A DNA stretch of 63,203 nucleotides, filler included, from Candidatus Fermentibacterota bacterium (GTDB lineage Bacteria > JAFGKV01): the NCBI GenBank assembly GCA_016928395.1. It is 6 parts of 6 records of this genome, joined end to end, with 100 filler letters (N's around TTAATTAATTAA, not from the genome) between each part and the next. Parts side by side here need not be neighbours in the genome. Positions count along the whole stretch, not along the records: positions 19,993 to 41,299 come from JAFGKV010000115.1; 5 more parts are not named here. The stretch is one strand, 5' to 3'. The position numbers and the translations under genes are program-made. Positions within the stretch are counted from its first letter, which is position 1, and every line of letters starts with the position of its first letter. This document shows positions 4,191 to 60,395 of the stretch, piece by piece. The notes under the pieces were generated by a model. The model had not been told where the DNA came from, ran no database searches, and saw only the letters and a list, made by a program, of their open reading frames with translations.

Positions 4191-5598
4191 GTCCTCCACT
4201 GGGGGAATCCGAATGGCGGGCATGGCATCGATGGCTTCTCACACCGGTGACCTGACGTACACATCTTTGATCGCACAGCATGCGGGGTCTGTGGCGGGCG
4301 ACGCGCCAACTGCTCTCGCATTCGTTGATCTTGATCACTTTAAGAGCGTCAATGATGCCTTCGGTCATGACACCGGGGACGCAGTGCTGCGGGAGTTGTC
4401 CGCGAGGATCAGGCAGAGCCTGCGTGAAGACGATACCGTGATCCGCTGTGACGGTGATGAATTCCTGGTCATTCTCCCCGGATTGAGCACCGAGGTGGCG
4501 GAGACCGTGGCAGAACGAATCCTGCAGTCTGTCTCCTCTGCTCCCTTCGGCGGCTCGGCGTCGCTGGTGCTCACCGCCAGCGCGGGTGTCGCCGTAGCTC
4601 CCGATGACGGGGCAACCTTTCAGGACCTAATGGAACGCGCTGAGATCCGCCTCTACGCTGCAAAGGCGCGGGGCCGTAATGTGGTGATCAGCTGCGACGT
4701 GACACCTTCATCCGGCATGCTTCTCGATGAGATGGCTACTCGTGCGGGGTGCCATGCCGCTGCGAATGCTCTGCATCGATTTCTGGATGCCCTGCCTGAG
4801 AAGAGACGCGGGGTGTTCGAGGTCTCGGGTAGGATTGGCAGCGGGAGGGACAGCTTCCTCACCAAGGCCGGCGAAGCCGCGCGATTGCGTGGCTTCAACG
4901 TCATGCGACTGACCGGTAGACTCGAAACTCAGCACGAGAGCTACGCAACCATACGCGAAGCCATGGGAAGCAACGCAAGCTGCCTCGACGATCCGAAGAC
5001 CAGCCTGCGCCGTTTTGTCGCGGCGTTGGGTACGGGTTCGACCGTACTTGTGGTAGACGAACTGCAGCGTGTCGACACTGACAGCCAGGCCGCGCTATCG
5101 TGGCTCTTGGAATCCGATCTTGGCCCCGTGGGCATCGTCTACTCAAGCGACCGAGCCGCGTGTGGCGCAGTTCGCTCCCCGGGGACATCGCTGTGGGTGA
5201 CGGTTGAACTCCTTCCCCTGTCGCTGCCCGAACTAAGAGTGATGCTGCGCAGCCTTCTCCAATGGGAGCCTCCAGAAGACTTCGTGGCCTGGCTGTACGA
5301 CCACACGCAGGGCTTGCCCGGCTTCGTGCAGAAGGGATTGCGGTGGCTTCTGGACAGAGGCGTCATCGAGCGGAGCAAAGGCGAATGGACGTTCCATCGG
5401 GACGTGAGCGGGATCCCCTTGAGCCAGCGCATCGGGCTGCCGCGACGGGCCCCTCCCGGCGATCAGCCCGCGGCCTCTTCAGAGGGCGTCCGGTCATCCG
5501 GCTTGAACTCGATATTCCACGAGATTCCTCCCTCATTGCCTGATACCGCGACGGCTGATGACCGCCCGGGGAATGAGGGCTCAAGACCTGGAGAGTAG
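4180..5598 (+). CDS. GGDEF-domain (degenerate DGDEF) + AAA/STAND-like ATPase-domain protein
   Basis: DLDHFKSVNDAFGHDTGD...RCDGDEF...LYAAKARGRN; then GRIGSGRDS, LVVDELQRVD, TQGLPGFV; ATG at 4180 overlaps pfkA end (start uncertain). Confidence 0.8.
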   Translation: MAAKSSTGGIRMAGMASMASHTGDLTYTSLIAQHAGSVAGDAPTALAFVDLDHFKSVNDAFGHDTGDAVLRELSARIRQSLREDDTVIRCDGDEFLVILPGLSTEVAETVAERILQSVSSAPFGGSASLVLTASAGVAVAPDDGATFQDLMERAEIRLYAAKARGRNVVISCDVTPSSGMLLDEMATRAGCHAAANALHRFLDALPEKRRGVFEVSGRIGSGRDSFLTKAGEAARLRGFNVMRLTGRLETQHESYATIREAMGSNASCLDDPKTSLRRFVAALGTGSTVLVVDELQRVDTDSQAALSWLLESDLGPVGIVYSSDRAACGAVRSPGTSLWVTVELLPLSLPELRVMLRSLLQWEPPEDFVAWLYDHTQGLPGFVQKGLRWLLDRGVIERSKGEWTFHRDVSGIPLSQRIGLPRRAPPGDQPAASSEGVRSSGLNSIFHEIPPSLPDTATADDRPGNEGSRPGE

Positions 5599-11656: not shown

Positions 11657-11756
11657 NNNNNNNNNNNNNNNNNNNNNNNNNNNNNNNNNNNNNNNNNNNN
11701 TTAATTAATTAANNNNNNNNNNNNNNNNNNNNNNNNNNNNNNNNNNNNNNNNNNNN
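11657..11756. other. Artificial contig linker
   Basis: N44-TTAATTAATTAA-N44 (stops in all six frames). Confidence 0.98.
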
Positions 11757-19892: not shown

Positions 19893-19992
19893 NNNNNNNN
19901 NNNNNNNNNNNNNNNNNNNNNNNNNNNNNNNNNNNNTTAATTAATTAANNNNNNNNNNNNNNNNNNNNNNNNNNNNNNNNNNNNNNNNNNNN
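19893..19992. other. Artificial contig linker
   Basis: N44-TTAATTAATTAA-N44. Confidence 0.98.
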
Positions 19993-20354: not shown

Positions 20355-21668
20355 CTACGGCGCCGGGATGACGTCCTGGAGGGCTGAGGCCCACATCAGA
20401 AGGCGCTCGTCGGCGCCGAAGGGGGCCACCAGTTGCAGGCCCAGAGGCAGGCCGCGGGGCCCGCGGCCTGCGGGGAGGCTCAAGGCGGGCATACCCCCAT
20501 GGGTCCACGGCAGATTCATGATGGGGTTGCCGGTGGAGGACAACCCCTCTGGCGCCTCGCCCTGGGCCGAAGGCGAGATCCAGAGGTCAACCCCATGCCG
20601 AACCATGGCCTCCTCCATCTCCTCTCGCAGCGTTCGCATACCGGCTCTGGCCTCGGCCAGCTCTGCGGCGGAGACCGTCTGGCCTTCGAGGATCAAATCT
20701 CGTGTGGCCGGGCCATACAGCGAGCCATGGGAAGCGAACCATTCCCGGTGTACATGGGCGAACTCCGCGGCGACCATGCGCCGGTGACGGCGGTTCACCT
20801 TGTCGATAGTCGGAAGCAGGGGCGCCTCCTCAATGGCGCACCCGGCACCGCGGAGGCGTGTCACACACTCCCGGAACCCGGCCAGGCCTTCGGGATGTGC
20901 CTGGGCCAGGTAGGGCCCCGCAGGGATTCCGAGAACCGGCGGCGAGGTAGAAGGCGCCTCAGCCCGCCAGTCCGGTATGGCGGCTGCCGCGACATGGGCC
21001 ATCCCCTCCACATCCTGGGTGAAGAAACCCACCGTGTCCGCCGACGCGGAGAAGGAAACTATGCCGGTGGTACTGACGCGGCCAAGGCTGGGCTTGAACC
21101 CGACTACTCCGCAGTAGGCGGCGGGGCGTATGATGGAGCCGATGGTCTGGGTTCCCACTGCGACATGACACAGCCCCGCGGCAACCGCGGCCGCGGAGCC
21201 GCTGCTGGATCCGCCGGGAGTGTGGGACGGGTCATGGGGATTGCGGGTTGGACCGGGCTGGAAGAAGGCGAACTCCGTGGTGATGGTCTTGCCGAGCACG
21301 AATGCGCCGGCATCGCGGAGGCAACGAACGACGGCGGCCTCTTCGCCCTTGAAGAGCTCATGCGGGAGCCTCGAACCGGCCCGAGTCGGAAGGCCTTCCA
21401 CGTGGAAGATGTCCTTCACGCCCACCATGACGCCGAAGAGGGGCGGCCGGGTGGTGGGGTCGGGGGACGTCTCGCGCAGACGACGGGCTTCTTCGCGCAA
21501 TCGTTCCCTCCGATTCGGCTCGGGAAGGAAGGCGTGGATGCGGCGGTCGACCTTCTCGATCAGGTTGCACGCCGCCTCGATGTGGGCGACAAGGTCACTA
21601 GCGTCGCTTCGCAGGGCAACCACGTCGGACGCCAGGAGCGCAGGGTTCAGGAGAGGGTATTCAGCCAT
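20355..21668 (-). CDS. Amidase signature family protein
   Basis: GVKD, TPGGSSSGSAAAVAAG, GTQTIGSIIRPAAYCGVVGFKPS (Ser-cisSer-Lys triad). Confidence 0.93.
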   Translation of the reverse strand: MAEYPLLNPALLASDVVALRSDASDLVAHIEAACNLIEKVDRRIHAFLPEPNRRERLREEARRLRETSPDPTTRPPLFGVMVGVKDIFHVEGLPTRAGSRLPHELFKGEEAAVVRCLRDAGAFVLGKTITTEFAFFQPGPTRNPHDPSHTPGGSSSGSAAAVAAGLCHVAVGTQTIGSIIRPAAYCGVVGFKPSLGRVSTTGIVSFSASADTVGFFTQDVEGMAHVAAAAIPDWRAEAPSTSPPVLGIPAGPYLAQAHPEGLAGFRECVTRLRGAGCAIEEAPLLPTIDKVNRRHRRMVAAEFAHVHREWFASHGSLYGPATRDLILEGQTVSAAELAEARAGMRTLREEMEEAMVRHGVDLWISPSAQGEAPEGLSSTGNPIMNLPWTHGGMPALSLPAGRGPRGLPLGLQLVAPFGADERLLMWASALQDVIPAP

Positions 21669-21864
21669 GGTCACTCCGCACGGGCGATGGAGCGTTCATG
21701 TCGCCTCCTCACCCTCTCCCTCTCCTGTGAGGAGAGGGGATGCTGGAACTCCGCCGGCTTCAGGACTTGTGGACAACTGAGGCCCTCCGAGGCACTTGGC
21801 GTTGCTGACAATTGCCCGAACGACACAGAATCACGACCCCGGGCATATCTGCGTCGGTAGCCTG

Positions 21865-21963
21865 CTGTTGGGTTACGATGCGCTCACCCAACCTACATCT
21901 ACTTCTGTTGGGTTACGCTGCACTGACCCAACCTACATCTACTGATGACTGAGAACTGAGAAC
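21865..21963 (-). repeat. Tandem pair of GTAG-family REP hairpins plus heptamer run
   Basis: Two 40-bp-period units TGTTGGGTTACG(a/c)TGC...ACCCAACCTACATCTACT, followed by ACTGATG ACTGAGA ACTGAGA. Confidence 0.75.
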
Positions 21964-21981
21964 TCCTCGCACCGCGAGGCC

Positions 21982-23172
21982 TCACACCACCCCCTGGGCC
22001 CGCAGGTCGTCGATCCGGGCGTGGGGCATGCCCAGGAGTGACGACAAGACCGAGTCCGTGTGTTCGCCGACATCCGGTGCCCGGGTCAACGGGGGTTCGA
22101 TCGGCACCGAGGAGAGCTTGATGGGATTGCCCGGCACCAGAACCGTTCCCGCCACGGGATCTTCCACGTCTACCAGCATGTTTCTCGCCTTGAGCTGCCG
22201 GTTCTCCACCACGCGGTCGATGGTGTTGACCGGGCCGCAGGGCACTCCCGCCGCCTCCAGAATCACAAGCCACTCAGCCACGGTCTTGACCGCAAACACG
22301 GGTTCTAGGAGGGCGATCAGATCCTCCAGCGCGTCGGTGCGGGAGGCATTGGTAGCGAAGCGCGTCTCCGCGGCCCAATCGGGCCGGCCGATGGCCTGGC
22401 AGAGCCTAACCCAGATGCCATCATTGCCGGCTCCCACCACGAAATAGCCATCCAGGGCCTTGAAGGCCTGAAATGGCGTGATGGTCGGATGCCTGTTGCC
22501 CAGAGGCCCCGGCGGCACGCCGTCGACCTGGAACCGCGCGACGGCATTCTCCAGAATGGCCAACTGGCAATCCAGCATCGCCACGTCAACCTTCTGGCCG
22601 CGGCCCGTCTTCTCCCGCTCGTACAAAGCTCCCATGATGCCGACTGCGGTAAACAGCGAGGCGGTGATATCGCCGGTGGACATGCCGACCCGGGTCGGCG
22701 GCATGTCGGGCCAGCCGGTGATGCTCATGATGCCGCCCATGGCCTGTACCAGGATGTCGTAGGCGGGCCTCTTGGAGTCGGGGCCCGTGTGCCCAAACCC
22801 TGAGATAGCGGCATAGATGAGCCGGCTGTTGTGCTCCCGCAGCATCTCATACCCCAGGCCCAAACGTTCCATGACGCCGGGGCTGTAGTTCTCAACCAGC
22901 ACATCGGACTGCATGACCAGATCCAGGAGAATCCCGCGGCCCCGCTCGGTCTTCAGGTTGAGAGTCACGCTCCGTTTGCCGCGGTTGATGGCGAAGAAGT
23001 AGAGGCTCGTCCCATTCTTGAATGGCCCGAAGGCGCGGGAGTCGTCGCCGCGCCCCGGGATCTCCACCTTAATCACGTCGGCCCCGAGATCACTCAAGAC
23101 CATGGTACAGAAGGGACCCGCCAGCACCCGGGTAAGGTCTACCACGCGGATTCCCTCAAGCGGTCTGGCCAT
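21982..23172 (-). CDS. Family III CoA-transferase (CaiB/BaiF/Frc)
   Basis: PLEGIRVVDLTRVLAGPFCT..L.DLGADVIKVE, NRGKRSV, ISGFG..GP, catalytic Asp in GDITAS. Confidence 0.95.
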   Translation of the reverse strand: MARPLEGIRVVDLTRVLAGPFCTMVLSDLGADVIKVEIPGRGDDSRAFGPFKNGTSLYFFAINRGKRSVTLNLKTERGRGILLDLVMQSDVLVENYSPGVMERLGLGYEMLREHNSRLIYAAISGFGHTGPDSKRPAYDILVQAMGGIMSITGWPDMPPTRVGMSTGDITASLFTAVGIMGALYEREKTGRGQKVDVAMLDCQLAILENAVARFQVDGVPPGPLGNRHPTITPFQAFKALDGYFVVGAGNDGIWVRLCQAIGRPDWAAETRFATNASRTDALEDLIALLEPVFAVKTVAEWLVILEAAGVPCGPVNTIDRVVENRQLKARNMLVDVEDPVAGTVLVPGNPIKLSSVPIEPPLTRAPDVGEHTDSVLSSLLGMPHARIDDLRAQGVV

Positions 23173-25519
23173 GTCGCGCCTCCTTTTCCATCACCGCCAA
23201 GGCCACCTTTTCGGCCGTCAGGGGCATGGAGGTCAATCGCACACCCAAGGCATCCTCCAGCGCATTGGCCACCATGGGCGCGGCGGGAAGCATGGGGTGT
23301 TCCCCGATACCCCGGGCGCCGAACGGCCCGTCGGGCTGGGGCACCTCCACGATAATGGGCACTATCTCATCGGGAATATCCATGGCGGTGGGGATCTTAT
23401 AGTCTGTGAAGTTGGGGTTTGCCAGTCTGCCATGCTCATCGAACCGCATGTCTTCGTAGAGCACGGTGGCCAGGCCCTGCACCAGGCCGCCCTCTATCTG
23501 GGCCTTTACCATGCGGGGGTTGATGGCCTTTCCGGCGTCCAAGGCCTCAACCACCTTGCGTACCCGCATTTTGCCGGTCTGCCGGTCGACTTCCAGGGTC
23601 AATGCGGCGGCACCCACCGTGTAGTGCACATTGGGATGCCCGCCCTGGCCGGTCTCAGGGTCGGAAACCGCCGAGGCGTACTCAGGCATGAACATGCCGC
23701 GTCCCACGATGGGACCGCCCCGGTAGGTGCCGTCTTCGGTCTGGATACCCGAGATCACGAAAGAGCGCAAGGCAAGGCAGAAATCAGGCCTCGTACGGCA
23801 TTTCAGGGTCTCGTCTTCCAGGTAGAGGCTCTCCTGGGGGATGTGCAGGGCGCGCTCCGCGACGGCGAAAATCTGTTCCCGGGCATCCAGCGCGGCACGG
23901 CGCACGGCATTGCCAGTGCTCCATGTGATATGGGATGCCACGGTCTGCCATTCGTAGGGGTTGCGGTCGGTGTCGGGGGTCTCTACTCGAATCTTGTGAG
24001 GCGGTACGGTGAGCACCTCGGCCGCGATCTGGGCCATGGCGGTGAGCACTCCCTGCCCGATCTCCATGGCTGATATCAGGATATTGATGCTGCCATCCTC
24101 ATTGAACTTCAGAAAGGCGGTGGATGAAGCATTGGGCGGCATGGCAGGGGCTTTCCACAGCAGAGAAAACCCCTTGCCCACCAAGGCGGTGGAGCTGGAA
24201 GGGGGCTCCTTCTCGCCCCATTTGATCTCCTCTGCCACGCGATCGATGGCCTCAAGAAGACCGTTGGGGTTCATCGAGGCGCCATAGGCGAGAACGTCGC
24301 CCTCCCGGATGGCATTGTGCCTTCGGAAGGCGACCGGATCCATACCGATGGCGTGGGAGGCCTTGTCCACCATGCTCTCCAGCCCGAAGAGGAACTCGGA
24401 ATAACCGAATCCACGGTACGGGCCGCCGGGCGGCAGATTGGTATAGATGCAGAGCGAGTCGATGACGACATGGGGAATCCTGTACGGGCCCGTGGCCGAG
24501 AGCCCCACGGCGTTCACCACGTTGGCGCCATACTCCACGTAGGCGCCGGCATCCCAGTACAGCGTATGGGACAGGGCCGTGATGGCGCCGTCTCTCTTTA
24601 CCCCCATGCGCAGCTCCGACCGAAGCCCCAGGCGCTGGTACGTATTGTAGAACTCCTGCTCCCGCGACCAGCATAGCTTCACCGGCTTGCCGCGCAACTT
24701 CGTCGCCAAGGTCGCGGCCAGGATCTCCATGGTGACGCCGGCTTTGCCGCCGAATCCTCCGCCCACGTAGGGCGTGATCACGCGCACGTCATGGTGGGTT
24801 AGCCCCAGCGGCGCCAGCGTTTCTGCGAACAGATTCCGCTGGGTATGGGGGGATTGGGATGCCGTCCACACGGTGAGCCGGCCTGACTGGTCGAAGAGGG
24901 CCACGGCCCCATGGGGTTCAATGGCGCAGTGGGCATACCGAGGCACGGTGAACACCCCGTCCACCACGACATCGGCATCGGCGAAGCCCTGGGCCGCATC
25001 TCCCCTTCGGATCTTACGCCAATGGGCGATGTTCGTACCTGCCTTGGGGAAGAACCACGGCACATGCTCGTAGTTGCCCAGCTCGGGGTGAACCCGCACC
25101 CCGTCATCCTTGAGCGCCTCCATCTGGTCGAAGACCGCGGGCAGCGGCTCGTAGTCGACCCATACCGCGGCAGCAGCCGCCTGGGCGGCGGCAGGGCTCC
25201 GAGCCACCACCACAGCCACCTGTTCACCCACGAAGCGCACCCGGTCGGCGGCCAACACAAAGCGGTCTTTCATGTAGAGCCCGAAGTGAAGACCGGCGAA
25301 GTCCTTACCCGTGAATACCGCCACTACCCCCGGCATCCCTTGGGCGTGGGAGGTATCGATGCCGCGAATGAGCGCATGGGCGTGGGGGCTTTCCACGACC
25401 CAGGCATAGTGCACATTCGGGCCAAACTCCACATCATCCACGAACTGGGCGGCTCCTGAGACCTTCTCCCGTCCCTCCAAGCGCTCAACGGGCGCGCCAA
25501 TGAACCGATAGTCACTCAT
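23156..25519 (-). CDS. Xanthine dehydrogenase-family molybdopterin-binding large subunit
   Basis: SQSPH, VGGGFGGK, PYRGFG, EIGQG, TVASH, QIEGGLVQG, GARGIGE. Confidence 0.93.
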   Translation of the reverse strand: MSDYRFIGAPVERLEGREKVSGAAQFVDDVEFGPNVHYAWVVESPHAHALIRGIDTSHAQGMPGVVAVFTGKDFAGLHFGLYMKDRFVLAADRVRFVGEQVAVVVARSPAAAQAAAAAVWVDYEPLPAVFDQMEALKDDGVRVHPELGNYEHVPWFFPKAGTNIAHWRKIRRGDAAQGFADADVVVDGVFTVPRYAHCAIEPHGAVALFDQSGRLTVWTASQSPHTQRNLFAETLAPLGLTHHDVRVITPYVGGGFGGKAGVTMEILAATLATKLRGKPVKLCWSREQEFYNTYQRLGLRSELRMGVKRDGAITALSHTLYWDAGAYVEYGANVVNAVGLSATGPYRIPHVVIDSLCIYTNLPPGGPYRGFGYSEFLFGLESMVDKASHAIGMDPVAFRRHNAIREGDVLAYGASMNPNGLLEAIDRVAEEIKWGEKEPPSSSTALVGKGFSLLWKAPAMPPNASSTAFLKFNEDGSINILISAMEIGQGVLTAMAQIAAEVLTVPPHKIRVETPDTDRNPYEWQTVASHITWSTGNAVRRAALDAREQIFAVAERALHIPQESLYLEDETLKCRTRPDFCLALRSFVISGIQTEDGTYRGGPIVGRGMFMPEYASAVSDPETGQGGHPNVHYTVGAAALTLEVDRQTGKMRVRKVVEALDAGKAINPRMVKAQIEGGLVQGLATVLYEDMRFDEHGRLANPNFTDYKIPTAMDIPDEIVPIIVEVPQPDGPFGARGIGEHPMLPAAPMVANALEDALGVRLTSMPLTAEKVALAVMEKEARHGQTA

Positions 25520-25976
25520 GGCATCGCCTCCCTAGACTCTGCACCGCCTCGATGATGGGCCTGTATCCCGTGCAGCGGCAGAGGTTCCCTGCCAACGCTT
25601 CCTTGATCTGTCCCTCAGTGGGATGGGGCGTATCGCGCAGAAGCTCGGTGGCGGTCACGATCATCCCCGGGGCGCAGAAACCGCATTGAAACGAATCGTT
25701 GGCGAGAAACGCCTCCTGGAGCGCCGTCAGACCGTCTGCGGCGATGCCTTCCAGGGTCGTGATCTCATGGCCGTCAACTTCCACGGCCAGAATTAGGCAA
25801 CTGCGTACACTACGACCATCCAGCAAGACGGTGCAGGTGCCGCAGTCTCCGCGATTGCACCCAGCCTTGGGGCTCTTGATTCCCAGGCGATCCCGCACTA
25901 CGTCCAGCAGGATCTCCCACGGCTCTACCGCGATGCTGCGCCGCTCGCCATTCAGCATGAATGTGATGGTGGTCAT
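25512..25976 (-). CDS. Xanthine dehydrogenase-family 2x[2Fe-2S] small subunit
   Basis: GCNRGDCGTCTV...SC; QCGFCAPG; GNLCRCTGY. Confidence 0.95.
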   Translation of the reverse strand: MTTITFMLNGERRSIAVEPWEILLDVVRDRLGIKSPKAGCNRGDCGTCTVLLDGRSVRSCLILAVEVDGHEITTLEGIAADGLTALQEAFLANDSFQCGFCAPGMIVTATELLRDTPHPTEGQIKEALAGNLCRCTGYRPIIEAVQSLGRRCHE

Positions 25977-25977
25977 T

Positions 25978-26868
25978 TCAGCCTCCCAGAAGTGCCATGG
26001 CGGGCGGTTCGCCGCGCAGCCTGCGGGCGGCCTCCAGAAGCCCCCGCTCCAGCATGAGCGCGGCCATGTGCCGGCGATAGGCTTGGCTGGCACGAATATC
26101 CGAGATGGGTGCAATCTCCCCGTCGACGGCGGCCTTGGCTCGAGTCAGGGTTTCCTCGTCGAGCTCTCGACCGGCGAGCAATTCCTCGATAGTATGTGCC
26201 CTGGCCGGGATCGGGCCCAGCGCGCAGAAGGCCACGCGGTAGGTCTTGTCTTCCAGTGCCATCACCGCGACTCCGGCCTGGGCGAGGTCCTCGCCTCGAT
26301 AGCGCCCGAGTTTCACATAGCAGCCCGCATGTCGTCTCTGCGGACGGGGTACCGTGACTGAGACCACCAACTCGTCGGGACGGCGCGCCGTCTGTTTGGG
26401 GCCGGTGAACCACTGGTGAATCGAGACGTTTCTCTCGCCGCGAGCAGAGGCCAGGTGCACGTGGGCGTCGTGCACCAGCACCGCGGGGCCGCAATCCAGC
26501 GACGGTACCGCGGAGCATAGGTTTCCCGCCAGAGTCGCGCGGTTCCTGATCCCGGTCGAGGCCACGGTGGCGGCGCTCTCGGCGATCAGGGGAAACCCGT
26601 CCCGAACCTCGGGGGAGCATAGGATGTCAGAGAAGGTCACCCCCGCAGCTATTTCCAGCCGGTCATCACTCACCGCGATGCGGCGAAAACCGGCCAGATC
26701 CTTGACGTCGATCACGCACTCGGGAACGAGGCGGCCTTCCTTCAGGTGTACCACCACATCGGTTCCCCCGGCCATGATCGTGGCCCTCTCGCCGTGCAAT
26801 GCCAACAGGGAAAGGACTTCCACCACGGTGGAAGGCCGGGCGTAGGAGAACTGGTGCACAATTGCCAT
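25978..26868 (-). CDS. Xanthine dehydrogenase-family FAD-binding medium subunit
   Basis: MAGGTDV, IRNRATLAGNL, PISDIRAS..YR; AGGAG RBS. Confidence 0.93.
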   Translation of the reverse strand: MAIVHQFSYARPSTVVEVLSLLALHGERATIMAGGTDVVVHLKEGRLVPECVIDVKDLAGFRRIAVSDDRLEIAAGVTFSDILCSPEVRDGFPLIAESAATVASTGIRNRATLAGNLCSAVPSLDCGPAVLVHDAHVHLASARGERNVSIHQWFTGPKQTARRPDELVVSVTVPRPQRRHAGCYVKLGRYRGEDLAQAGVAVMALEDKTYRVAFCALGPIPARAHTIEELLAGRELDEETLTRAKAAVDGEIAPISDIRASQAYRRHMAALMLERGLLEAARRLRGEPPAMALLGG

Positions 26869-26893
26869 AGAATACACTCCTGTGCGGTGGCGG

Positions 26894-27715
26894 TCACTCC
26901 TCTGGAGGCGCCAAAGCGACGATACGGCACATGGAGGATTCCAGCTCCATGCCGCGCAGCGGGAACAGGCCGATCCACACCCGGCGGTTGCTCAACCGGT
27001 CGATTTCTCCCCCCAGGTTCTCGGCGTGAACCAGCCGCTTCGGGAAAAGCTTCAGGTGCATTACCTGGTAGAATTCGTCGGGGGGAAACATCTCGTCCCA
27101 CGGTTTTCCATACCGCTGCAGGAGCCGTGCCTCGGCCTCGTGAAACCGTTTCGGATGCCAGTCGCGAATGATGGTGTTCATGGGATGATCGGCGCTGCCA
27201 CAGTCGACGCCAATCCACTTGAACTTCATGTCCAGCGCCCAGGTGTGGAAGTCAGGACTGGGGCCGGGATGCTTCACGAAGTAGCGGATCTCGTCGGATT
27301 CCGGCCTGTCCCACGAGTAGCGGTGATAGCCGGTATTGATGATCAGGATGTCGCCCTTTTTGATATCGGCACGACCGCTGAGCAGCTCAGGGGAGTAGAG
27401 GTCGTAATCGCCGACGTGAGACGAGATGTCCACCACGACGCCCGGGCCGATCCATTCCTCCAGAGGCACCTGTCCGATGGTGCGCCCGCTGGCGTGGAAG
27501 TGAATCTCTCCGTCTATGTGAGTGCCCACGTGATTGCTGGTGGTGATGATCTGGCCGTTGGCGCCCTGCCCCATGTGGGCCCCGGCGAGACGCTTGAAGT
27601 ACTGGATGCCCAGCGGCATGTAGCTGGGCCACGGGGGCGTATGCACGCTCAGCGGTTGGGTCAAATCGTAGACGGCGACCCGGTCCATGAAGGCAAGGAA
27701 CTCATCGATACGCAT
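26894..27715 (-). CDS. Cyclase-family (kynurenine formamidase-like) metal hydrolase
   Basis: HxGTHxD motif NHVGTHIDG; IGVDCGSAD; HAENL. Confidence 0.9.
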   Translation of the reverse strand: MRIDEFLAFMDRVAVYDLTQPLSVHTPPWPSYMPLGIQYFKRLAGAHMGQGANGQIITTSNHVGTHIDGEIHFHASGRTIGQVPLEEWIGPGVVVDISSHVGDYDLYSPELLSGRADIKKGDILIINTGYHRYSWDRPESDEIRYFVKHPGPSPDFHTWALDMKFKWIGVDCGSADHPMNTIIRDWHPKRFHEAEARLLQRYGKPWDEMFPPDEFYQVMHLKLFPKRLVHAENLGGEIDRLSNRRVWIGLFPLRGMELESSMCRIVALAPPEE

Positions 27716-27717
27716 TG

Positions 27718-29130
27718 TCAACTCTCCTTCAATGTCGGCTCAAGAGCAAAGGCCAAGGCCCGCGCGGCGGCGAGGAAGGGTTCTATGGGCGCACGCACGA
27801 CTCCCGCGCCCACCTGGCCGATGCCGGGCTCCCGGTGGGCGACACCGGTGTCGATGAAGGGCTGTAGCCCGGTGCGTGCCACCTTGACGAGGTCAATGCC
27901 CACCGGCGTGCCCCGGAAGTCAAGCCCGGGAATCCGGTAGGCGGTATGCTCGGCGGCGGTAATCTCGTACATGGCCAAGGTGTAGCCTACGGCGTCTCTT
28001 GCCGCACCGCCGACGAACTGCACGATGGCCGGGGCCGCGGCAATGGCGAAGCCGCCCAGGCCGGCGGTCTCCGTGATGGCGCTGTCGCCGATATCGGGGT
28101 TGGCATCGGCCTTGGAGAAGCCGGGAAAGAACAGGGCATCCGGCACGGGGGCGGGCGCGGTAAACCACGCGGAACCCGTGCCCGAGGCCTGCACGCCGAA
28201 CTCGGTGCCGTTGCGGGCCATGGCCACCACCACACTGCTGGAAGGGATCCCGCGAGCGGAATCCAGCGACACCTTGCAGGAGGCCATGGAGAGGTTCAGG
28301 AAGAAGTGATCGTTGCCGTCGATGAAGCGCAGGACCTCTGCCGCGGCATCTCGGGCCGCGGTTTCGACAATGGCGGGCGCAAGAATCCGCAGGAACAGGG
28401 AGGTGGCCGCGCGATTACGGTTGTGCACCTCGTCGCCCATGTGCAGGGCCTGGGCGATGATCGCGCGGAGGTCTATGCCTCCCAAAGCCTTCACGGCCTC
28501 GGCGAGCACGGGAAACAGGAGATCCGCCATCCAGTCTAGCCGTTGGATGACCTCCGGGCTGTAGGCGCCGTACCGGAGAACCTTGCCCAGCCCTTCATTC
28601 ATGGTGCAGAAGGCCTGGGCGCCGACCTCATCGTTTCGCACGACGAACACAGGCATGGAGGCTGAGATGATGCCGGCCATGGGGCCTACCGAGGCATGGT
28701 CATGGCATGGGGAGAACCGGATCGCGCCGGAGGCGGCCAGGTCGCGAGCCTCCTCAACCGTACCGGCCCGTCGCTCGTAGAGGAGCGCGCCCATGACGGC
28801 GCCCTGCATGGGGCCGCACATCCGGGGCCAGGCGATGGGAGGGCCGGCGTGAAGGATGGTATCCGGGGTCATCCCCGGGATAAGGTCGAGGGCTCTTCCC
28901 AGGGTTACCAGCCGGGGTCGAGCCGATAGGATACGGGATACGGCTTCCTGGTTGGCGGCGGTGATACGCTCGGCATGGCGCGCGAAGGCGGCCATGACAT
29001 TCGGCGGCAGTGCAGGGGGGCGCCAGTCCACCTGGATCGCCTCGGCGCCAGCGGCTCTGATGCCGTCACAGAACCAGGGAATGCCGACATTCACCACTGA
29101 CAGCGGCCGGTCAAACAGCTCGGTGCTCAT
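27718..29130 (-). CDS. yahG: DUF1116 protein, YahG/YlbE(AllG)-like
   Basis: ILHAGPP, VGPMAG, NEGLGKVLRYGA, MGDEVHNRN, MARNG, PDIGDSAITE, GQVGAG; YahG-type N-terminal VVNVG...VDWRPP segment. Confidence 0.85.
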   Translation of the reverse strand: MSTELFDRPLSVVNVGIPWFCDGIRAAGAEAIQVDWRPPALPPNVMAAFARHAERITAANQEAVSRILSARPRLVTLGRALDLIPGMTPDTILHAGPPIAWPRMCGPMQGAVMGALLYERRAGTVEEARDLAASGAIRFSPCHDHASVGPMAGIISASMPVFVVRNDEVGAQAFCTMNEGLGKVLRYGAYSPEVIQRLDWMADLLFPVLAEAVKALGGIDLRAIIAQALHMGDEVHNRNRAATSLFLRILAPAIVETAARDAAAEVLRFIDGNDHFFLNLSMASCKVSLDSARGIPSSSVVVAMARNGTEFGVQASGTGSAWFTAPAPVPDALFFPGFSKADANPDIGDSAITETAGLGGFAIAAAPAIVQFVGGAARDAVGYTLAMYEITAAEHTAYRIPGLDFRGTPVGIDLVKVARTGLQPFIDTGVAHREPGIGQVGAGVVRAPIEPFLAAARALAFALEPTLKES

Positions 29131-30680
29131 GCGTCCCTCCCTGCGGCGATGGTCGCGGCCAGGTACGACGCCGCGGCGTTGGATGGAGCGACCACAGCGC
29201 CGGCCTCACGCAGTGCATCCTGTACGGAAGGCAGGCGCTGGGGATCGGCGGCGGTGCCTGTGACCGAGACGACGATGGGCAAAGTCCTCCCCCCTTCCGA
29301 TGCAATGCGTTGGGCATCCTGAATGGCGGGCGCCAGCTCGCCGGCGGGGTCAGGGTGGGCTCCGTACCCCAGCACTACGTCCATGAGAATCACGGCGACT
29401 CCTGGGTCGCGGGCCTCCTGCACCAATCGGCGGCATCGCAGCGAGTAGTCGATCATGGGATGGGGCCTACCCACGGTGAATTCGTCGGCGCCCAAGTCCA
29501 CCAGGGAGTGCATGCCGCCCCGGGGAGCACTTGCACGTTCTGCAGATGCGGAACGCCGCAGATCGCCGGCGAAAGATCCCACGAGAGGCATCATAATGGA
29601 GGCGGCTTCGCCTCGGAGGGTACCGCCGCTGAAGAGGCCCCGCACGAAGCGCTGGGATGGCGCCAGGGAGGGCCGGATGGAGGCGGCGATGGCCTTCATC
29701 TCTGATCTGCGCGCGGCCAGGATCTGCGGTATGGCGCTCACGTCGTCGCCCTTGGCCAACGTGGCCGCGGCGATACCGGCCTCCTCCAACGTGGTCGCGG
29801 AGAATGCCCACGGGCCGGGGCCGTCATGGCTGACCCCGAGGAATGCGGTCACCACGGGTTTGTCACTCCGGCGTGCCGCCCGCGAGATCAGGGGCACCAC
29901 CTCGGTATCGGGCGCTTTGGCGATAAGCACGATCACCGCCGTGGCCGCGTCATCAGTCAAGAGACGCAGGGCCTCCAGGAACATGATACCTCCCACCTCA
30001 CGGAGGGTGTCGCGCCCGCCGGTGCCCAGAGCCTGGGAGATCCCGGCGCCCTGATTGGACACGATGGTGCTGACCTCCTGGAGCCCCGTGCCGGAGGCTG
30101 CCACGATGCCCACGGACCCGCGCCGGACGACATTGGCGAACCCCAGAGGCGCCCCATTGATGATGGCACTACCGCAGTCTGGCCCCATGAGCAGGAGCCC
30201 GCGGTTTCTGGCCAGGTGTTTGAGTTCCACTTCGCGCTCCAGGGGCACATTGTCCGAGAAGATCATGACGTGCAGGCCAAGCCGCAGGGCGTCAAGAGCC
30301 TCATCCGCCGCGAACCGGCCCGCCACGGAGATCAACGCCAAGGAGGCCGAAGGCAATGCGGCAACGCCGCCATGGAGTGTGCGCGGCGCGTCGGGCGGGA
30401 GGCTGGGGCCGCCTCCTCGCAGTGCGTCATCCACCGCGCCCAATGCTGCCGCCGCGGCATCGCCGTTGTCGGCAATGACCGCCACCAGGAGGTCTTCATC
30501 CTTCGCGCCGGCGAACGAGGGAAGCAGCATGCCCGCGGAGTGGAGAATGGCCTTGTTGGTGGCGGTAGCCATTACCAGAGCGACATCCTGCACACCGGGC
30601 AGCTTCCGCAGTTGCACGGCTGCGGCCATGAGGGCCACCGAATCGAAGTAGGAACCCGTGAGAACAGTACCGCTGGTCAT
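29127..30680 (-). CDS. yahF: FdrA/YahF(AllF)-like acyl-CoA synthetase-fold protein
   Basis: YFDSVALM, FSDNV, LLMGPDCG, ASGTGLQE, GTGGRD, GLFSGGTL, GRPHPMID, DVVLGYG. Confidence 0.9.
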   Translation of the reverse strand: MTSGTVLTGSYFDSVALMAAAVQLRKLPGVQDVALVMATATNKAILHSAGMLLPSFAGAKDEDLLVAVIADNGDAAAAALGAVDDALRGGGPSLPPDAPRTLHGGVAALPSASLALISVAGRFAADEALDALRLGLHVMIFSDNVPLEREVELKHLARNRGLLLMGPDCGSAIINGAPLGFANVVRRGSVGIVAASGTGLQEVSTIVSNQGAGISQALGTGGRDTLREVGGIMFLEALRLLTDDAATAVIVLIAKAPDTEVVPLISRAARRSDKPVVTAFLGVSHDGPGPWAFSATTLEEAGIAAATLAKGDDVSAIPQILAARRSEMKAIAASIRPSLAPSQRFVRGLFSGGTLRGEAASIMMPLVGSFAGDLRRSASAERASAPRGGMHSLVDLGADEFTVGRPHPMIDYSLRCRRLVQEARDPGVAVILMDVVLGYGAHPDPAGELAPAIQDAQRIASEGGRTLPIVVSVTGTAADPQRLPSVQDALREAGAVVAPSNAAASYLAATIAAGRDA

Positions 30681-31543
30681 GTGGTCAGTCCCTGATGGAG
30701 AGAGAGGAAGAGCCCCGTCATGAGATCGGCCCCCGAGGTAGAGCCCATGCCCATGAGCCGGTGACCGTGCGTCTCTAGTGCCGTCTCATCGCTGTGCGCC
30801 AGTGCCTCTACATAGTCTTTCACCGGCGCCGCGAAGCACCCCTCGGCTGCTAGGGTAAGTGAAGTACGTGAGAGAAGGGTTGTCCCGCGGGTATGCAGAG
30901 TCACGGTGTCCAGAGAAAGGGCAAACCGTCTGTTGCCCATTGTGGCCAGCATGTGCCGTGCGGCGAGATGACCCACCAGAAAGTCGTCACCGCTGGGCGT
31001 GAGGCCGATACCGGTGCCGCAGAGCCGGCGAACTCCCTCGGCTTCCCGGCCGCCGAACAGGAGGCGAACCCCCTGGGTGACGGCGTCAACATATCGGCTC
31101 ACGAAGCGGCTCGCTGGGGCAGTCGGCTCCACCGAGAAGAGCCACGAGAGGCTCTTTTGCGGCGCGTGACGACGGAGGAAATCCATCTGGGTAGCCATGT
31201 GTCTTTGCAGGTCGGCCCGTGTCGTCTCCACGTAAGGCCGCGATGACCAGCGGGACTCCAAGAGGGGGATACGAACGTCATCTATGGACACGGCATCCTG
31301 CGTGATCACGAGGGAGCGTGGGCATTCACACCAGAGCCCTCGGGTGACGATGTTCACCGGGCCAGGGCCCACGCGTTCGTCTACTACGGAGACCATCCGA
31401 TCCTCGGCGGCGAAGTTCGTCACGCGGGGAAATCGAGAGTGTACCCGGAAAGAGCCCGGCCTGAGGCGATCGCCGCAGGAGAGCACCTGTGGCATGCCAG
31501 CCCAGGGGGGTATGGGCGCCGGGGGGGTCTGGGCAACCTGCAT
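30677..31543 (-). CDS. yahE: DUF2877 protein, YahE/YlbF(AllH)-like
   Basis: VHSRF...N, G.GIGLTPSGDDFLVG, TTLLS, GSTSGADLMTG. Confidence 0.85.
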   Translation of the reverse strand: MQVAQTPPAPIPPWAGMPQVLSCGDRLRPGSFRVHSRFPRVTNFAAEDRMVSVVDERVGPGPVNIVTRGLWCECPRSLVITQDAVSIDDVRIPLLESRWSSRPYVETTRADLQRHMATQMDFLRRHAPQKSLSWLFSVEPTAPASRFVSRYVDAVTQGVRLLFGGREAEGVRRLCGTGIGLTPSGDDFLVGHLAARHMLATMGNRRFALSLDTVTLHTRGTTLLSRTSLTLAAEGCFAAPVKDYVEALAHSDETALETHGHRLMGMGSTSGADLMTGLFLSLHQGLTT

Positions 31544-38124: not shown

Positions 38125-38751
38125 ATGGGAGCCGAAGAGGATCGAGAGCTGCTCTGTACGGCTGTGTCACTGTTGGACCGGGGGCATGTCGACAGCGCCG
38201 TCGAAATGCTTGAAGCGCTGCGGCCAACGATGCCACACGACCCGGTGGTACTGGGATCCTTGGGGAGAGCGGCTCTCGCCCGGGGGGCCTATGGCGAGGC
38301 TGAACAGCTTCTCAACAGTGCACTGGAGAGCGACCCCGGATTTTATCCCGCGCTTCTTAACAAGGGCATCCTCCTGGTGAACCTCGGAGACTGCGAGGGC
38401 GCCATCGCGCTGTATGACAGGGCGCTGGAAGTCAACCCCCGGTATCCCGAGGCCCACAGCAATCGCGCCAATGCCCTGGCCATACTGGGCCGCGTTGAGG
38501 AGGCGCTGAAGGACTACGGCAGGGCGCTGGAGTTGAAGCCAGGCTTCGCCGATGCCCACTACAACTATGCCTACACACTGAGCCGCATGGGTCGCACTGA
38601 CGATGCGCTGGGGGAGCTGGAGCATACTGTTCGATTGCAGCCCGCCCACCGCCTTGCATGGCAACTGAAGCTCTGCATCCATGTGGATCGAGGCGAAGCT
38701 GAGGAGGCGCAGCGTTGCCAGGACAGTCTCGGGAAGCTTGGCCCGCCATGA
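38125..38751 (+). CDS. Tetratricopeptide repeat protein
   Basis: About five TPRs (e.g. ALLNKGILL..LG..EGAIALYDRALEVNP; AHSNRANAL..LGR.EEALKDY.RALEL.P); AAGGAGG RBS. Confidence 0.9.
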   Translation: MGAEEDRELLCTAVSLLDRGHVDSAVEMLEALRPTMPHDPVVLGSLGRAALARGAYGEAEQLLNSALESDPGFYPALLNKGILLVNLGDCEGAIALYDRALEVNPRYPEAHSNRANALAILGRVEEALKDYGRALELKPGFADAHYNYAYTLSRMGRTDDALGELEHTVRLQPAHRLAWQLKLCIHVDRGEAEEAQRCQDSLGKLGPP

Positions 38752-38863
38752 GAAGCCCCGCTGGCGAATGTCGAGAGAGAAGGACCTTGACATCAGGGCG
38801 ACGTGACGGATTGTTTTGCGATGTAGTACTATTAAGTGTTCCTCCAGGAGTATTCCAGTGATA

Positions 38864-40036
38864 ATGGCATCGCGCGAGAACATCCTTATCGTCGATGACG
38901 AACCCAATATCCGCATGGCCATGAGGGTGGCGCTGGAGCGGGAGGGGTATGCGGTCAGCGAGGCCTACGATGGCAAGGATGCGCTGCGTTCCATCTTCTC
39001 GGAAAAGCCTGACCTGGTTCTGCTTGATATCATGCTGCCCACCATGAACGGCTATGACGTGACCATCAAGCTCCGGGAGGACGACCGAACTCGGCGTCTG
39101 CCCATCATCATGGTGACTGCCAAGGGCCAGATCACTGACCGGATTCATGGGCTTGATCTCGGCGCTGATGACTACATCTCGAAGCCATTCGATCTTCGGG
39201 AACTGGTGGCGCGCGTGCACGCAATGCTCCGTCGCCGTGCCGCCGAAGAATCGGCCGCCAAGCCCAAGCGTCTCGACCCAGGCGCCGTCGCCTTTCCGAC
39301 TCCCGCGCCGGACATGACCTTTGAGACCTTTGTCGTGGGGCCATCCAATCGCGAAGCGTATGAGGCTGCCATGGCGGTGGCGGCCGCCCCCGGTCGGTTA
39401 TTCAACCCGTTGTTCATGTACGGCGACGCCGGGATCGGAAAGTCGCACCTGCTGGCCGCCATTGGCAACCGCGTGGGCAAGGATCATGGCTCGGACAAGG
39501 TCATGTACACCTCCTCCGAGGTGTTTCATGAGACCATCCGAGAGGCCATTGTATCCCATCGCATCGAGGAGATGCTCGCATCAATGGGCAGGTTCGTGGT
39601 GCTTTTGGTGGATGATGTTCACTTCCTCGCCCGGGCGCGCTCGCAGCAGGATCGCGCCCTCGAGGTCTTCATGGAGCTGTACGATCGGGCGCGCCAGGTG
39701 GCCGTCTGCAGCGACAGGCCGCCCGACCAGCTCAACGATCTGACCGAGATGATCCGGGCGCTGTTTGTCCGGGGCAAGGTCGTCAATCTGGACGTGCCCA
39801 CACCGTATCATCGGGGACGGATCCTGAGGTCTGTGTGTGAACGCAACGGGTGGGTCATACCCGAGAGCGCCCTCATCTACCTGGCGCGGAACCTCACCGC
39901 CAACGTGCGAACCCTCATCGGCGTCGCCAAGAGGGTTGCCGCAGAATCCACTTTGAGCGGTAAACCCATCAACCCGGAGATCATCGACGAAGTCATTGCC
40001 CAAGTGCATTCTATCGGTCGGCCCACCAATCTGTAG
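38864..40036 (+). CDS. Response-regulator receiver fused to DnaA/Hda-type AAA+ domain
   Basis: REC: ILIVDDE, LLDIMLP, MVTAK, ISKPF; DnaA domain III: TFETFVVGPSN, NPLFMYGDAGIGKSHLL, LVDDVHF, SDRPP, NVRTLIG; ends before domain IV. Confidence 0.9.
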   Translation: MASRENILIVDDEPNIRMAMRVALEREGYAVSEAYDGKDALRSIFSEKPDLVLLDIMLPTMNGYDVTIKLREDDRTRRLPIIMVTAKGQITDRIHGLDLGADDYISKPFDLRELVARVHAMLRRRAAEESAAKPKRLDPGAVAFPTPAPDMTFETFVVGPSNREAYEAAMAVAAAPGRLFNPLFMYGDAGIGKSHLLAAIGNRVGKDHGSDKVMYTSSEVFHETIREAIVSHRIEEMLASMGRFVVLLVDDVHFLARARSQQDRALEVFMELYDRARQVAVCSDRPPDQLNDLTEMIRALFVRGKVVNLDVPTPYHRGRILRSVCERNGWVIPESALIYLARNLTANVRTLIGVAKRVAAESTLSGKPINPEIIDEVIAQVHSIGRPTNL

Positions 40037-40078
40037 TCTCGCGAGCATACGCCCACTCTTGTGAACGGAGAATCCCGA

Positions 40079-40957
40079 ATGACGCGAGTCCTGTGTCTCG
40101 TAGCTATGCTGGCGGCCTCCGCCTCGGCCGCGGGCGGCTCTCCCCGCGGGTTTTGGGCGGGCTGGCCACTCCCGAAGGTATGGCTGGCGTTCGTATTCGC
40201 CTCGATAGGGCTTGCGCTGTTAGTGAGCGGTCGCGTCAGCCGCCGGGTTCGTCTTGTATTCCTGGGCGTGTCTTTCGTGCTCTGGGGCGTAGTGCCTGCT
40301 CTCTCTCTGGGCGAGTTCTCCCGGGGAATGGTCCTGCGCCCAAGTCCCGTAAGCATGGTGGCTCGCCCCTTCCAGTTCCTTGCTACCGGGCGTGTTATCC
40401 CGCCGGTGTTTCTTGGGCTGCTCTTGGCCGTGGTGCTCATGTCGCTGGCAGGAACGAAGCTGTTCTGCGGCTGGGTGTGCCCTATCGGCGCATTGCAGGA
40501 GCTGGTGCATGCGGTACCCTTGAGGCGGGGCGCCAAACGCATTGTGCCGTTTGCCGTAAGCAATAGCATCAGGATCGGGTTTTTCGCGGTGTTCCTCGGT
40601 GTGCTCCTCCTCACGGGCCGCTATCTCTACAGCTATGTCTCCCCCTTCGATGCCCTGAAGTGGGGTTTTGTCCTGCCGGCGGCCGGGGTTCTCGCGCTGA
40701 CTCTCATAGCGGCTCTCTTCGTGTTCCGACCGTTCTGCTATTTCCTATGCCCCCTTGGTCTCCTGACATGGGTTCTGGAGCAGGTCGCCTTGACCAAAGT
40801 CCGTCTGGGCGGAAGCTGTACCGACTGCAAGCGCTGCGTTCGCGAGAGCCCGTGTCCCACGGTGGGCGCCATCCTCGCGGAGAAGCCCATTCGTCCCGAC
40901 TGCTATGCCTGCGGGCGCTGCATGGAGGTCTGCAAAGACAGCCTGAAGTGGCGATAG
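40079..40957 (+). CDS. Membrane polyferredoxin (NapH/MauN-like 4Fe-4S binding protein)
   Basis: FCGWVCPIGALQE, FCYFLCPLG, CTDCKRC...C, CYACGRCMEVC; several TM helices. Confidence 0.88.
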   Translation: MTRVLCLVAMLAASASAAGGSPRGFWAGWPLPKVWLAFVFASIGLALLVSGRVSRRVRLVFLGVSFVLWGVVPALSLGEFSRGMVLRPSPVSMVARPFQFLATGRVIPPVFLGLLLAVVLMSLAGTKLFCGWVCPIGALQELVHAVPLRRGAKRIVPFAVSNSIRIGFFAVFLGVLLLTGRYLYSYVSPFDALKWGFVLPAAGVLALTLIAALFVFRPFCYFLCPLGLLTWVLEQVALTKVRLGGSCTDCKRCVRESPCPTVGAILAEKPIRPDCYACGRCMEVCKDSLKWR

Positions 40958-41019: not shown

Positions 41020-41299
41020 CGGTTCACGGTTCATAGTTCACAGTTGTCAGTCATGGAGTTATCAGTTTTCAGTCATCAGTTCCAGACTGGTCCATCTCTA
41101 TACTCGACAGACCTTTTCATGTCCTTCATGTTCTTCATGGTACACAGAGCCTCGTAGGGCACGGCGCACTGTGACGAGAGATGAGGCTTCGCTTCACTCG
41201 CAGTTTTCAGTCATCAGTGGGGCCTCTGGATGCGACAGCACCCAGGTTTTTCGAGGTGGAGAGTACAACCGGCAGGTGGCTATCGGCTGTCAGCTATCG
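41020..41299. repeat. Mosaic of short tandem repeats at contig end, including copy 2 of the 30-bp dispersed repeat (41238-41267)
   Basis: CGGTTCA CGGTTCA TAGTTCA; CAGTTTT CAGTCAT CAGT twice; TTCATGTCC TTCATGTTC TTCATGG; GGCTATC GGCTGTC AGCTATC. Confidence 0.7.
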
Positions 41300-41399
41300 N
41301 NNNNNNNNNNNNNNNNNNNNNNNNNNNNNNNNNNNNNNNNNNNTTAATTAATTAANNNNNNNNNNNNNNNNNNNNNNNNNNNNNNNNNNNNNNNNNNNN
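41300..41399. other. Artificial contig linker
   Basis: N44-TTAATTAATTAA-N44. Confidence 0.98.
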
Positions 41400-54939: not shown

Positions 54940-55039
54940 NNNNNNNNNNNNNNNNNNNNNNNNNNNNNNNNNNNNNNNNNNNNTTAATTAATTAANNNNN
55001 NNNNNNNNNNNNNNNNNNNNNNNNNNNNNNNNNNNNNNN
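54940..55039. other. Artificial contig linker
   Basis: N44-TTAATTAATTAA-N44. Confidence 0.98.
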
Positions 55040-60295: not shown

Positions 60296-60395
60296 NNNNN
60301 NNNNNNNNNNNNNNNNNNNNNNNNNNNNNNNNNNNNNNNTTAATTAATTAANNNNNNNNNNNNNNNNNNNNNNNNNNNNNNNNNNNNNNNNNNNN
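60296..60395. other. Artificial contig linker
   Basis: N44-TTAATTAATTAA-N44. Confidence 0.98.

Follow-up and report, generated by a model that had tools for sequence, protein, structure and literature searches.

A 63,203-nucleotide stretch of DNA from Candidatus Fermentibacterota bacterium (GenBank assembly GCA_016928395.1; hereafter, the window) carries, at 38864..40036 on the plus strand, a gene for a 390-amino-acid protein (P0001) in which a response-regulator receiver (REC) is joined to the ATPase domain (domain III) of the chromosomal replication initiator DnaA. The protein, which we call REC-DnaA, is a real, selected and lineage-restricted paralogue of the DnaA ATPase domain, and in it a member of the DnaA/Hda superfamily is used as the output of a response regulator. 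Its gene is conserved among sediment bacteria that have not been cultured. Judged by the residue patterns of its family, the nucleotide pocket and the sensing residues are tightly constrained, and the face shown to a neighbour's ATP has been abandoned. These features suggest a signal-controlled regulator of initiator assembly. Our favoured reading, to which we assign a probability of roughly 0.35, is that REC-DnaA would cap or poison DnaA oligomers under the control of a signal; the reading that it is a switch repurposed outside replication carries equal weight.

The open reading frame (ORF) spans 38816-40036 (+) and is opened by a TTG. The ATG at 38864 is the best start, over the TTG at 38816, because a Shine-Dalgarno-like AGGAG precedes it (38846..38850, +, 13 nt 5′ of the ATG; read from the sequence) and the N-termini of the homologues match. 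The assignment of the gene (390 codons plus stop) draws on the ORF, Pfam, TIGR00362 and alignments with Bacillus subtilis DnaA. Pfam placed Response_reg at residues 7–118 (5.9e-34; 117 bits against a gathering threshold of 30.2) and Bac_DnaA at residues 150–307 (5.3e-44; 150.7 bits against 23), and among the 17 Pfam families matching P0001 at E<=1, Bac_DnaA_C, DnaA_N and Sigma54_activat were all missing. Residues 143–381 of P0001 aligned with positions 100–338 of the 437 in the DnaA profile TIGR00362, at a score of 213 bits, below the curated whole-protein cut-off of 343.9. In B. subtilis DnaA (8btg), residues 112–350 of 446 align with P0001. Because both alignments stop there, P0001 ends just past domain III, its terminus lying 4–9 residues beyond the end of that domain; the downstream ORF encodes a Fer4_5 protein. 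The comparison shows that the receiver stands in place of DnaA domains I and II and that domain IV is absent.

An AlphaFold2 model built on a 20-homologue alignment had a mean predicted local distance difference test score (pLDDT) of 82 and consisted of the receiver and an AAA+ core with its lid, joined by a disordered linker. The closest solved relatives were domain III of B. subtilis DnaA (8bv3, 2.9e-44) and of Thermotoga DnaA (2z4r), and Foldseek also ranked DnaA domain III at the top (8btg, 3.8e-19, and 8bv3; E values of 1e-18 to 1e-19). The core corresponds to DnaA domain IIIa (residues 149–311, 39308..39796, +; Pfam, alignments and model) and the lid to domain IIIb (residues 312–385, 39797..40018, +; alignments and model), in which a PTPYHRGRILR motif is specific to the short forms described below. 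Between strands 2 and 3 the model has helices 218–230 and 234–240 (two-helix initiator-specific motif, 39515-39583, +), the marker of the initiator clade. The Bac_DnaA score, Walker A/B, sensors I and II and this two-helix insert, which contains no insertions or deletions, place the module among the initiator-clade AAA+ proteins.

The receiver (residues 7–118, 38882..39217, +; Pfam and Foldseek) resembled BeF3-activated PhoB (1zes) with 44% identity and a root-mean-square deviation (rmsd) of 1.1 Å, and the Foldseek matches to the PhoB, YycF and VicR receivers had 42–47% identity and rmsd values of 1.0–1.2 Å. PhoB, RpaB and YycF were its best-scoring models. The PhoB model covered residues 5–131 only, with 142 bits against a cut-off of 296, and the winged-helix Trans_reg_C output was missing. 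By motif coordinates, the phospho-acceptor D55 lies at 39026-39028, D11/D12 at 38894-38899, T85 at 39116-39118 and K107 at 39182-39184 (all +). An earlier note, made from the sequence alone, had described a fusion of an intact phospho-acceptor receiver with DnaA domain III that stops where domain IV would start; Pfam, TIGR00362, the presence of all five receiver residues and the position of the terminus bear this out. A flexible linker (residues 126–148, 39239..39307, +; pLDDT <50 at 132–140) connects the two domains.

To place the protein among its relatives, we drew on 5.8 billion clustered proteins, where 18 clusters had both domains, 16 of them full-length (383–392 amino acids), at 94–47% identity; all derive from metagenomes or metagenome-assembled genomes. 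Four further short-form sequences were obtained from cluster members. A profile search of 1.84 billion representatives returned proteins of 597–665 amino acids that match the whole profile and have about 200 extra C-terminal residues, and with P0129 as the query 54 proteins were found at E<=1e-60, of which 50 were taken as long forms. The family set thus comprised 20 short-form and 50 long-form sequences retaining the fusion (the long ones 352–665 amino acids, full-length members 586–665). The seven relatives that carry NCBI names are all long, four being called 'response regulator [Candidatus Fermentibacteria bacterium]' and three 'DnaA/Hda family protein [Candidatus Eisenbacteria bacterium]', and several short forms are labelled by the Joint Genome Institute (JGI) as initiator proteins or OmpR/PhoP-type regulators. 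These proteins are already present in public annotation, where the names they carry are generic or misleading.

A tree of the ATPase modules was built from the 20 short forms, the 50 long forms and 10 canonical DnaAs and rooted on the latter. All 70 receiver-fused modules fell on one side of a branch separating them from canonical DnaA (approximate likelihood-ratio support, SH-aLRT, of 100), with short forms (96) and long forms (94) as separate groups; the tree came from a quick search without bootstraps, and its canonical set consisted of the DnaAs most similar to the query, with no Hda or DnaC outgroup. An earlier quick tree that included tandem DnaA-III proteins, again without bootstraps, agrees on the separate clade.

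Comparison with the orthologues of two JGI metagenome loci (L081 and L082) gave a ratio of nonsynonymous to synonymous substitution rates (dN/dS) of 0.05 overall, 0.03 for the receiver, 0.04–0.05 for the ATPase and 0.18–0.32 for the linker; dS is near saturation, which makes the ratios rough, though far below 1. The substitution pattern thus shows purifying selection on both domains. Decay or chimerism of the gene might be suspected (an artefact of assembly, or a response regulator to which a frameshifted dnaA has become joined), as the window consists of concatenated contigs and 1.26 kb separate the gene from a contig end. However, the fusion junction is well within one contig piece, the architecture, length and stop are identical in independent assemblies, near-identical pieces occur in two DNA runs of other studies, and dN/dS is about 0.05 in each domain. 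With 18 fusion clusters and 50 long forms in one clade under purifying selection, the one-off or frameshifted dnaA that the earlier note had listed among its refuting outcomes is refuted for practical purposes.

The pocket residues were kept almost without exception. The Walker A lysine (GDAGIGKS, residues 187–194, 39422-39445) and the Walker B Asp-Asp pair (VLLVDD, 246–251, 39599-39616) were found in 20/20 short, 50/50 long and 10/10 canonical sequences, and both the sensor I aspartate (CSDR, 282–285, 39707-39718) and the sensor II arginine (NVR, 347–349, 39902-39910; all + strand, by motif coordinates) in 19/20, 50/50 and 10/10, respectively. The receiver was similarly conserved: its phospho-acceptor aspartate is present in all 20 short and in 48 of the 50 long forms, the exceptions being one glutamate and one gapped fragment, and in the short forms D11, D12, D55 and K107 are invariant, with T85 a threonine in 19 and a serine in one.

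The donor side was altered. In P0001 box VII has been remodelled to TEMIRALF (residues 294–301, 39743..39766, +; alignments), and a HMMER alignment sets LTEMIRALF opposite LEDRLRSRF of B. subtilis DnaA, so that methionine occupies the Arg281 position and leucine that of the Arg285 finger. An arginine at the Arg281 position was found in none of the 20 short and none of the 50 long forms (Glu in 43 of the latter, Gly in 6, Asp in 1) as against 10/10 canonical DnaAs, and a larger canonical sample had both box VII arginines in 40/40. At the Arg285 finger position, arginine occurred in 3/20 short, 7/50 long and 10/10 canonical sequences; otherwise the family has G, A, S, T, C, E, D, L or P there. 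These ten arginines require at least four changes on the tree and fall in at least four lineages, and from this distribution the finger position looks unconstrained. A first tree had suggested that basal subclade members retain the finger, implying two losses, but the larger tree contradicted this. Leucine at the AID-2 Leu290 position was present in 0/20 short, 42/50 long and 10/10 canonical sequences, and all 20 short forms have Lys, Arg, Thr or Ser instead. The earlier note's account of the kept Walker and sensor motifs and of the two lost arginines thus stood for P0001; among the homologues, the loss of Arg281 extends to all 70 and that of the finger to most, 10 of 70 having an arginine in its place. 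The note's idea thus withstood two of the three refuting conditions that it had set.

A review (PMC5742627) describes head-to-tail oligomerisation of DnaA through the bound ATP and the neighbouring protomer's Arg285, domain III contacts supported by Arg281, Arg227, Leu290 and Lys243, and a role of the sensor 2 arginine, Arg334, in hydrolysis. There, DnaA Arg285 is essential for ATP-dependent oligomerisation, intrinsic ATPase activity and the hydrolysis of DnaA-ATP that depends on datA (DDAH), and is not needed for RIDA (regulatory inactivation of DnaA). The earlier note had taken the arginine finger to be needed for both oligomerisation and RIDA, and according to the review only the former holds for Arg285. 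The note's proposal that the protein could bind ATP and not donate a finger fits the sequences, in which the ATP-binding and sensor motifs are kept.

Hda triggers hydrolysis with its own arginine finger, and DnaA-III-only paralogues such as Hda switch DnaA off by donating it. REC-DnaA might in the same way be a RIDA-type inactivator that stimulates the hydrolysis of DnaA-bound ATP, as it too is paralogous to domain III of DnaA and lacks domain IV, and NCBI calls some long forms 'DnaA/Hda family protein'. However, the Hda model TIGR03420 matched it with only 75.9 bits against a cut-off of 194.8, leucine sits at the finger position, and there is no N-terminal clamp-binding motif. A regular-expression search of 20 members found no conserved clamp-binding-type motif, the scattered matches in 7/20 lying at non-homologous positions within folded regions; this agrees with the absence of an Hda-type motif stated previously. 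An Hda-like function was already disfavoured and is very improbable.

We propose that REC-DnaA acts on DnaA assemblies in the following way. An orphan histidine kinase, its gene unlinked, would phosphorylate D55; no histidine kinase gene is adjacent in the window or in L082 and L083 (a further JGI locus). PhoB-type receivers dimerise via their alpha4-beta5-alpha5 face, and because the receiver is close to activated PhoB-family receivers in the Foldseek comparison, phosphorylation may likewise cause dimerisation or release of the ATPase module. The module is predicted to bind ATP, since Walker A/B and sensors I and II are kept, and would be unable to offer an arginine finger or the box VII/AID-2 surface. 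Having no donor finger or surface, it could enter head-to-tail assemblies of the DnaA type only as the receiving subunit, with an Arg285-type finger of DnaA entering its ATP site. By docking on the finger-exposing end of a DnaA oligomer, it would keep the next ATP-DnaA from locking on, so that growth is blocked when the signal is on. Recruitment would depend on protein contacts, because domain IV is absent, and the protein encoded by the conserved upstream gene, which has tetratricopeptide repeats (TPR), is a candidate scaffold. The more specific form of this proposal, a two-component 'decoy initiator' (a mimic of DnaA with no DNA binding, which would accept a finger from DnaA and could not pass one on, and which lineages like the Eisenbacteria and Fermentibacteria would have conserved along with a TPR scaffold dedicated to it), seems to us rather unlikely as a whole.

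Several observations weigh against the capping of DnaA assemblies. Without domains I and IV, affinity for the origin complex would rest on weak contacts between ATPase domains. Ten of the 70 members do have an arginine at the finger position, so that the role of acceptor only is not universal, and the equivalent of the AID-1 residue Arg227, read from the alignment with a register uncertainty of one residue, is unconserved. The receiver-fused clade sits on a long stem in both trees, as expected if it were outside the DnaA interaction network. Its ATPase modules have a mean identity to canonical DnaA of 34% (range 25–39), whereas the canonical DnaAs compared share 57% with one another; short forms share 37% with long ones. 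The earlier description of a 'close copy' of domain III was overstated. Neither a cluster of DnaA boxes (consensus, at most one mismatch; 7 matches against 6.1 expected) nor an origin signature was found near the gene, and no second DnaA-like gene was found in the 63 kb. The conserved promoter region of the REC-DnaA gene contains no DnaA box in an alignment of four loci.

A positive or structural role at the origin or on single-stranded DNA was also considered, in which the protein would co-assemble with DnaA or act as a DnaC/DnaI-like loader and bind single-stranded DNA through the initiator motif. The two-helix motif specific to initiators and loaders is kept, basic residues follow Walker B in the P0001–P0015 subclades, and there are weak matches to IstB (45 bits) and DnaI (38 bits). 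Against this, the P0018 clade has no such basic residues, the loader models score far under their cut-offs, and the N-terminus is a receiver rather than a helicase-binding domain. We consider such a co-factor improbable.

A family-specific scan of JGI metagenomes recovered three loci (L081, L082 and L083). The L082 protein (P0004) is 88% identical to P0001, and that of L083 is 76% identical over the matched C-terminal part. In the window the gene lies in a plus-strand unit, after a gene for a 208-amino-acid TPR protein (38125..38751, +; Pfam TPR families, and no signal peptide by eye, no predictor having been used) and before one for a membrane protein with a Fer4_5 4Fe-4S domain (40061..40957, +). 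The TPR gene is directly upstream on the same strand in all three loci with upstream DNA (window, L082 and L083), and its products in L082 and L083 are 71% and 58% identical to that of the window; the Fer4_5 gene follows in two of three loci only (present in L083, absent in L082). A -35-like CTTGACA (38786..38792, +) is invariant in the intergenic region of 4/4 loci (window, L081, L082 and L083), and from this conservation the REC-DnaA gene probably has its own promoter there, for which a -10 element is not defined; a consensus promoter scan did not flag 38786-38792. The same scan found a promoter-like site 5′ of the TPR gene as well. The TPR neighbour and the longer sister family are additions to what the earlier note contained.

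These loci bear on the reading that gives REC-DnaA a function outside replication. It would then be an ATP-loaded module that hydrolyses slowly or not at all, and the state of its receiver would control the TPR protein, another client or the extra domain of the long forms. The dedicated TPR orthologue in 3/3 loci favours this, as do the long stem at 34% identity to DnaA, the loss of the whole donor face (Arg281 and Arg285, and Leu290 in the short forms) and the long forms, whose additional alpha/beta domain of about 190 amino acids belongs to no known family and suggests ATPase-based outputs. The nearest language-model neighbours are regulators with a receiver and a sigma54-type ATPase, which is an architectural analogy only. 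On the other hand, the N-terminal segment specific to DnaA domain III, the initiator insert and sensor II are strictly kept, and a generic switch would need none of them. The TPR protein is a putative partner only; its gene may have a separate promoter, and a conserved -35-like element stands in front of the REC-DnaA gene.

The long forms (P0127, P0129, P0132, P0133 and P0393–P0438) consist of a receiver, DnaA-III, a disordered linker and the alpha/beta domain, which is modelled with a pLDDT of about 72–94 per 10-residue block. No Pfam or PDB sequence match was found for this C-terminal domain. Its neighbours in the protein atlas are small G-domain clusters (Arf/Ras/Roc, 0.89–0.91), and kinship with small G domains is a lead only; no P-loop was seen in it by eye. 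Other architectures built on DnaA-III were observed too, namely metagenome proteins of 573–697 amino acids that carry Bac_DnaA twice in tandem, Bac_DnaA_C being present as well in one of these proteins, and giants of 1876–1990 amino acids that combine MshEN with two copies of Bac_DnaA (unusual architectures: P0020, P0131, P0134, P0136, P0141, P0144, P0146, P0153, P0171, P0179, P0186, P0189, P0226, P0252; P0126, P0130). The N- and C-modules of the tandem proteins grouped separately in the first tree.

We also looked for the family in other data. In metatranscriptomes, two sediment runs from two studies each yielded a single contig, about 155 nt long, that covers the Walker A region (39314-39475), and both differ from the window identically (T>C at 39410); this is a weak hint that a close relative is transcribed, and DNA carry-over is possible. 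RNA cover was confined to this interval, and its lack in other parts carries no meaning. A mobile-element origin was rejected, as no plasmid or phage record carries the fusion (0/1048 matching plasmid and 0/207 matching phage records cover at least 80% of P0001). The protein atlas had no REC + DnaA cluster among clusters of at least 50 members. A profile search at E<=1e-65 over sampled genomes gave 0/401 for Chloroflexota, 0/401 for genomes labelled Myxococcota and 0/401 for Actinomycetota; with four candidates scored per genome and no positive control, these zeros carry little weight. A contig scan with a receiver pattern returned at least 600 stretches, from which 80 loci were retained; the two longest matches (L044 and L048) held ordinary kinase/regulator genes. 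No paper on a receiver-DnaA fusion was found in the literature covered, which left out subscription journals.

The window consists of at least six joined contig pieces, separated by five linkers of 100 bp (44 N, TTAATTAATTAA, 44 N) at 11657-11756, 19893-19992, 41300-41399, 54940-55039 and 60296-60395, and neither neighbourhood nor skew is therefore readable across the linkers. The REC-DnaA gene belongs to the piece 19993-41299, whose right end is 1.26 kb away, and genes past 41400 are not shown to be its neighbours. A GC-skew and gene-orientation switch near 38 kb was dropped once the window proved to be concatenated contigs. A defence-system reading was likewise rejected, the PADLOC matches being generic only, at no more than 24 bits, and Rfam had no match in the window. 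On its minus strand, the piece with the REC-DnaA gene carries a cluster for purine/oxamate catabolism, besides genes for an aspartyl protease and an ABC-2 transporter. This cluster (20355-31543, −) encodes an amidase, a CoA-transferase of family III, a molybdenum hydroxylase of three subunits (MoCoBD, Fer2 and FAD_binding_5) and, as oxamate carbamoyltransferase subunits, AllG, a CoA-ligase-like protein and AllH. Between the Fer4_5 gene and the contig end, a non-coding stretch contains an exact 17-nt direct repeat, CAGTTTTCAGTCATCAG, at 41063-41079 and 41201-41217, 138 bp apart (by eye). On a different piece, the ORF 4093-5598 encodes a signalling protein with GGDEF (9.8e-36); AAA_16 matches it weakly, at 8.7e-06, which does not reach the curated cut-off. 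Proteins with Por_Secre_tail and FlgD_ig domains are also present in the window and would be in keeping with the candidate phyla of the named long forms. In a search with RecD2, the nearest proteins were 71% and 55% identical and those with names about 45%, too distant for assignment to a phylum.

If the capping of DnaA assemblies is true, an environmental signal would terminate initiator filaments at the level of protein, unlike Hda/RIDA, titration and origin-binding response regulators, and the family would allow dominant-negative control of a filament of AAA+ initiators to be put to a direct test. A receiver-gated paralogue that has kept the pocket and shed the finger would be Hda's mirror image. 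Even if the function lies outside replication, a whole clade (20 short and 50 long forms examined) shows the ATPase of DnaA put to use as the output domain of a signalling protein. It also follows that metagenome genes labelled 'DnaA' or 'chromosomal replication initiator protein' by JGI include some that cannot be initiators.

Among known systems, DnaA domain III is the best match in both sequence and fold (TIGR00362, 213 bits; 8bv3, 2.9e-44; Foldseek 8btg, 3.8e-19), and Walker A/B, sensors I and II, the initiator insert and the N-terminal domain III segment are retained. REC-DnaA differs from DnaA in having a receiver for domains I and II and no domain IV, in the missing box VII arginines and the changed AID-2 Leu290, and in forming a separate, long-stemmed clade. 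With Hda/HdaA it shares the DnaA-III-only organisation and, presumably, contact between ATPase domains, whereas it is far below the Hda cut-off (its ATPase part scores 213 bits with the DnaA model and 76 with that of Hda), has neither clamp motif nor finger, and possesses a receiver. Regulators of the NtrC/NtrX/LuxO type, the nearest protein-atlas clusters, similarly place the assembly state of an AAA+ module under a receiver, and NtrX (5m7o) and NtrC1 (1ny5) were whole-model Foldseek matches, with high rmsd. Their AAA+ module is of the sigma54-interaction type and that of REC-DnaA of the initiator clade, and REC-DnaA has no helix-turn-helix, so that the likeness is one of architecture, not of ATPase-subfamily homology. 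Members of the OmpR/PhoB family have a similar receiver, and REC-DnaA contains all the phospho-acceptor residues, but their winged-helix output is replaced by the DnaA ATPase. To our knowledge, two-component links to replication initiation run through regulators that bind origin DNA or through DnaA proteolysis. The response regulators CtrA, Spo0A, MtrA and HP1021 govern replication by way of output domains that bind DNA at oriC. REC-DnaA would likewise link two-component signalling to initiation but, having no DNA-binding domain, could do so only by acting on the initiator protein.

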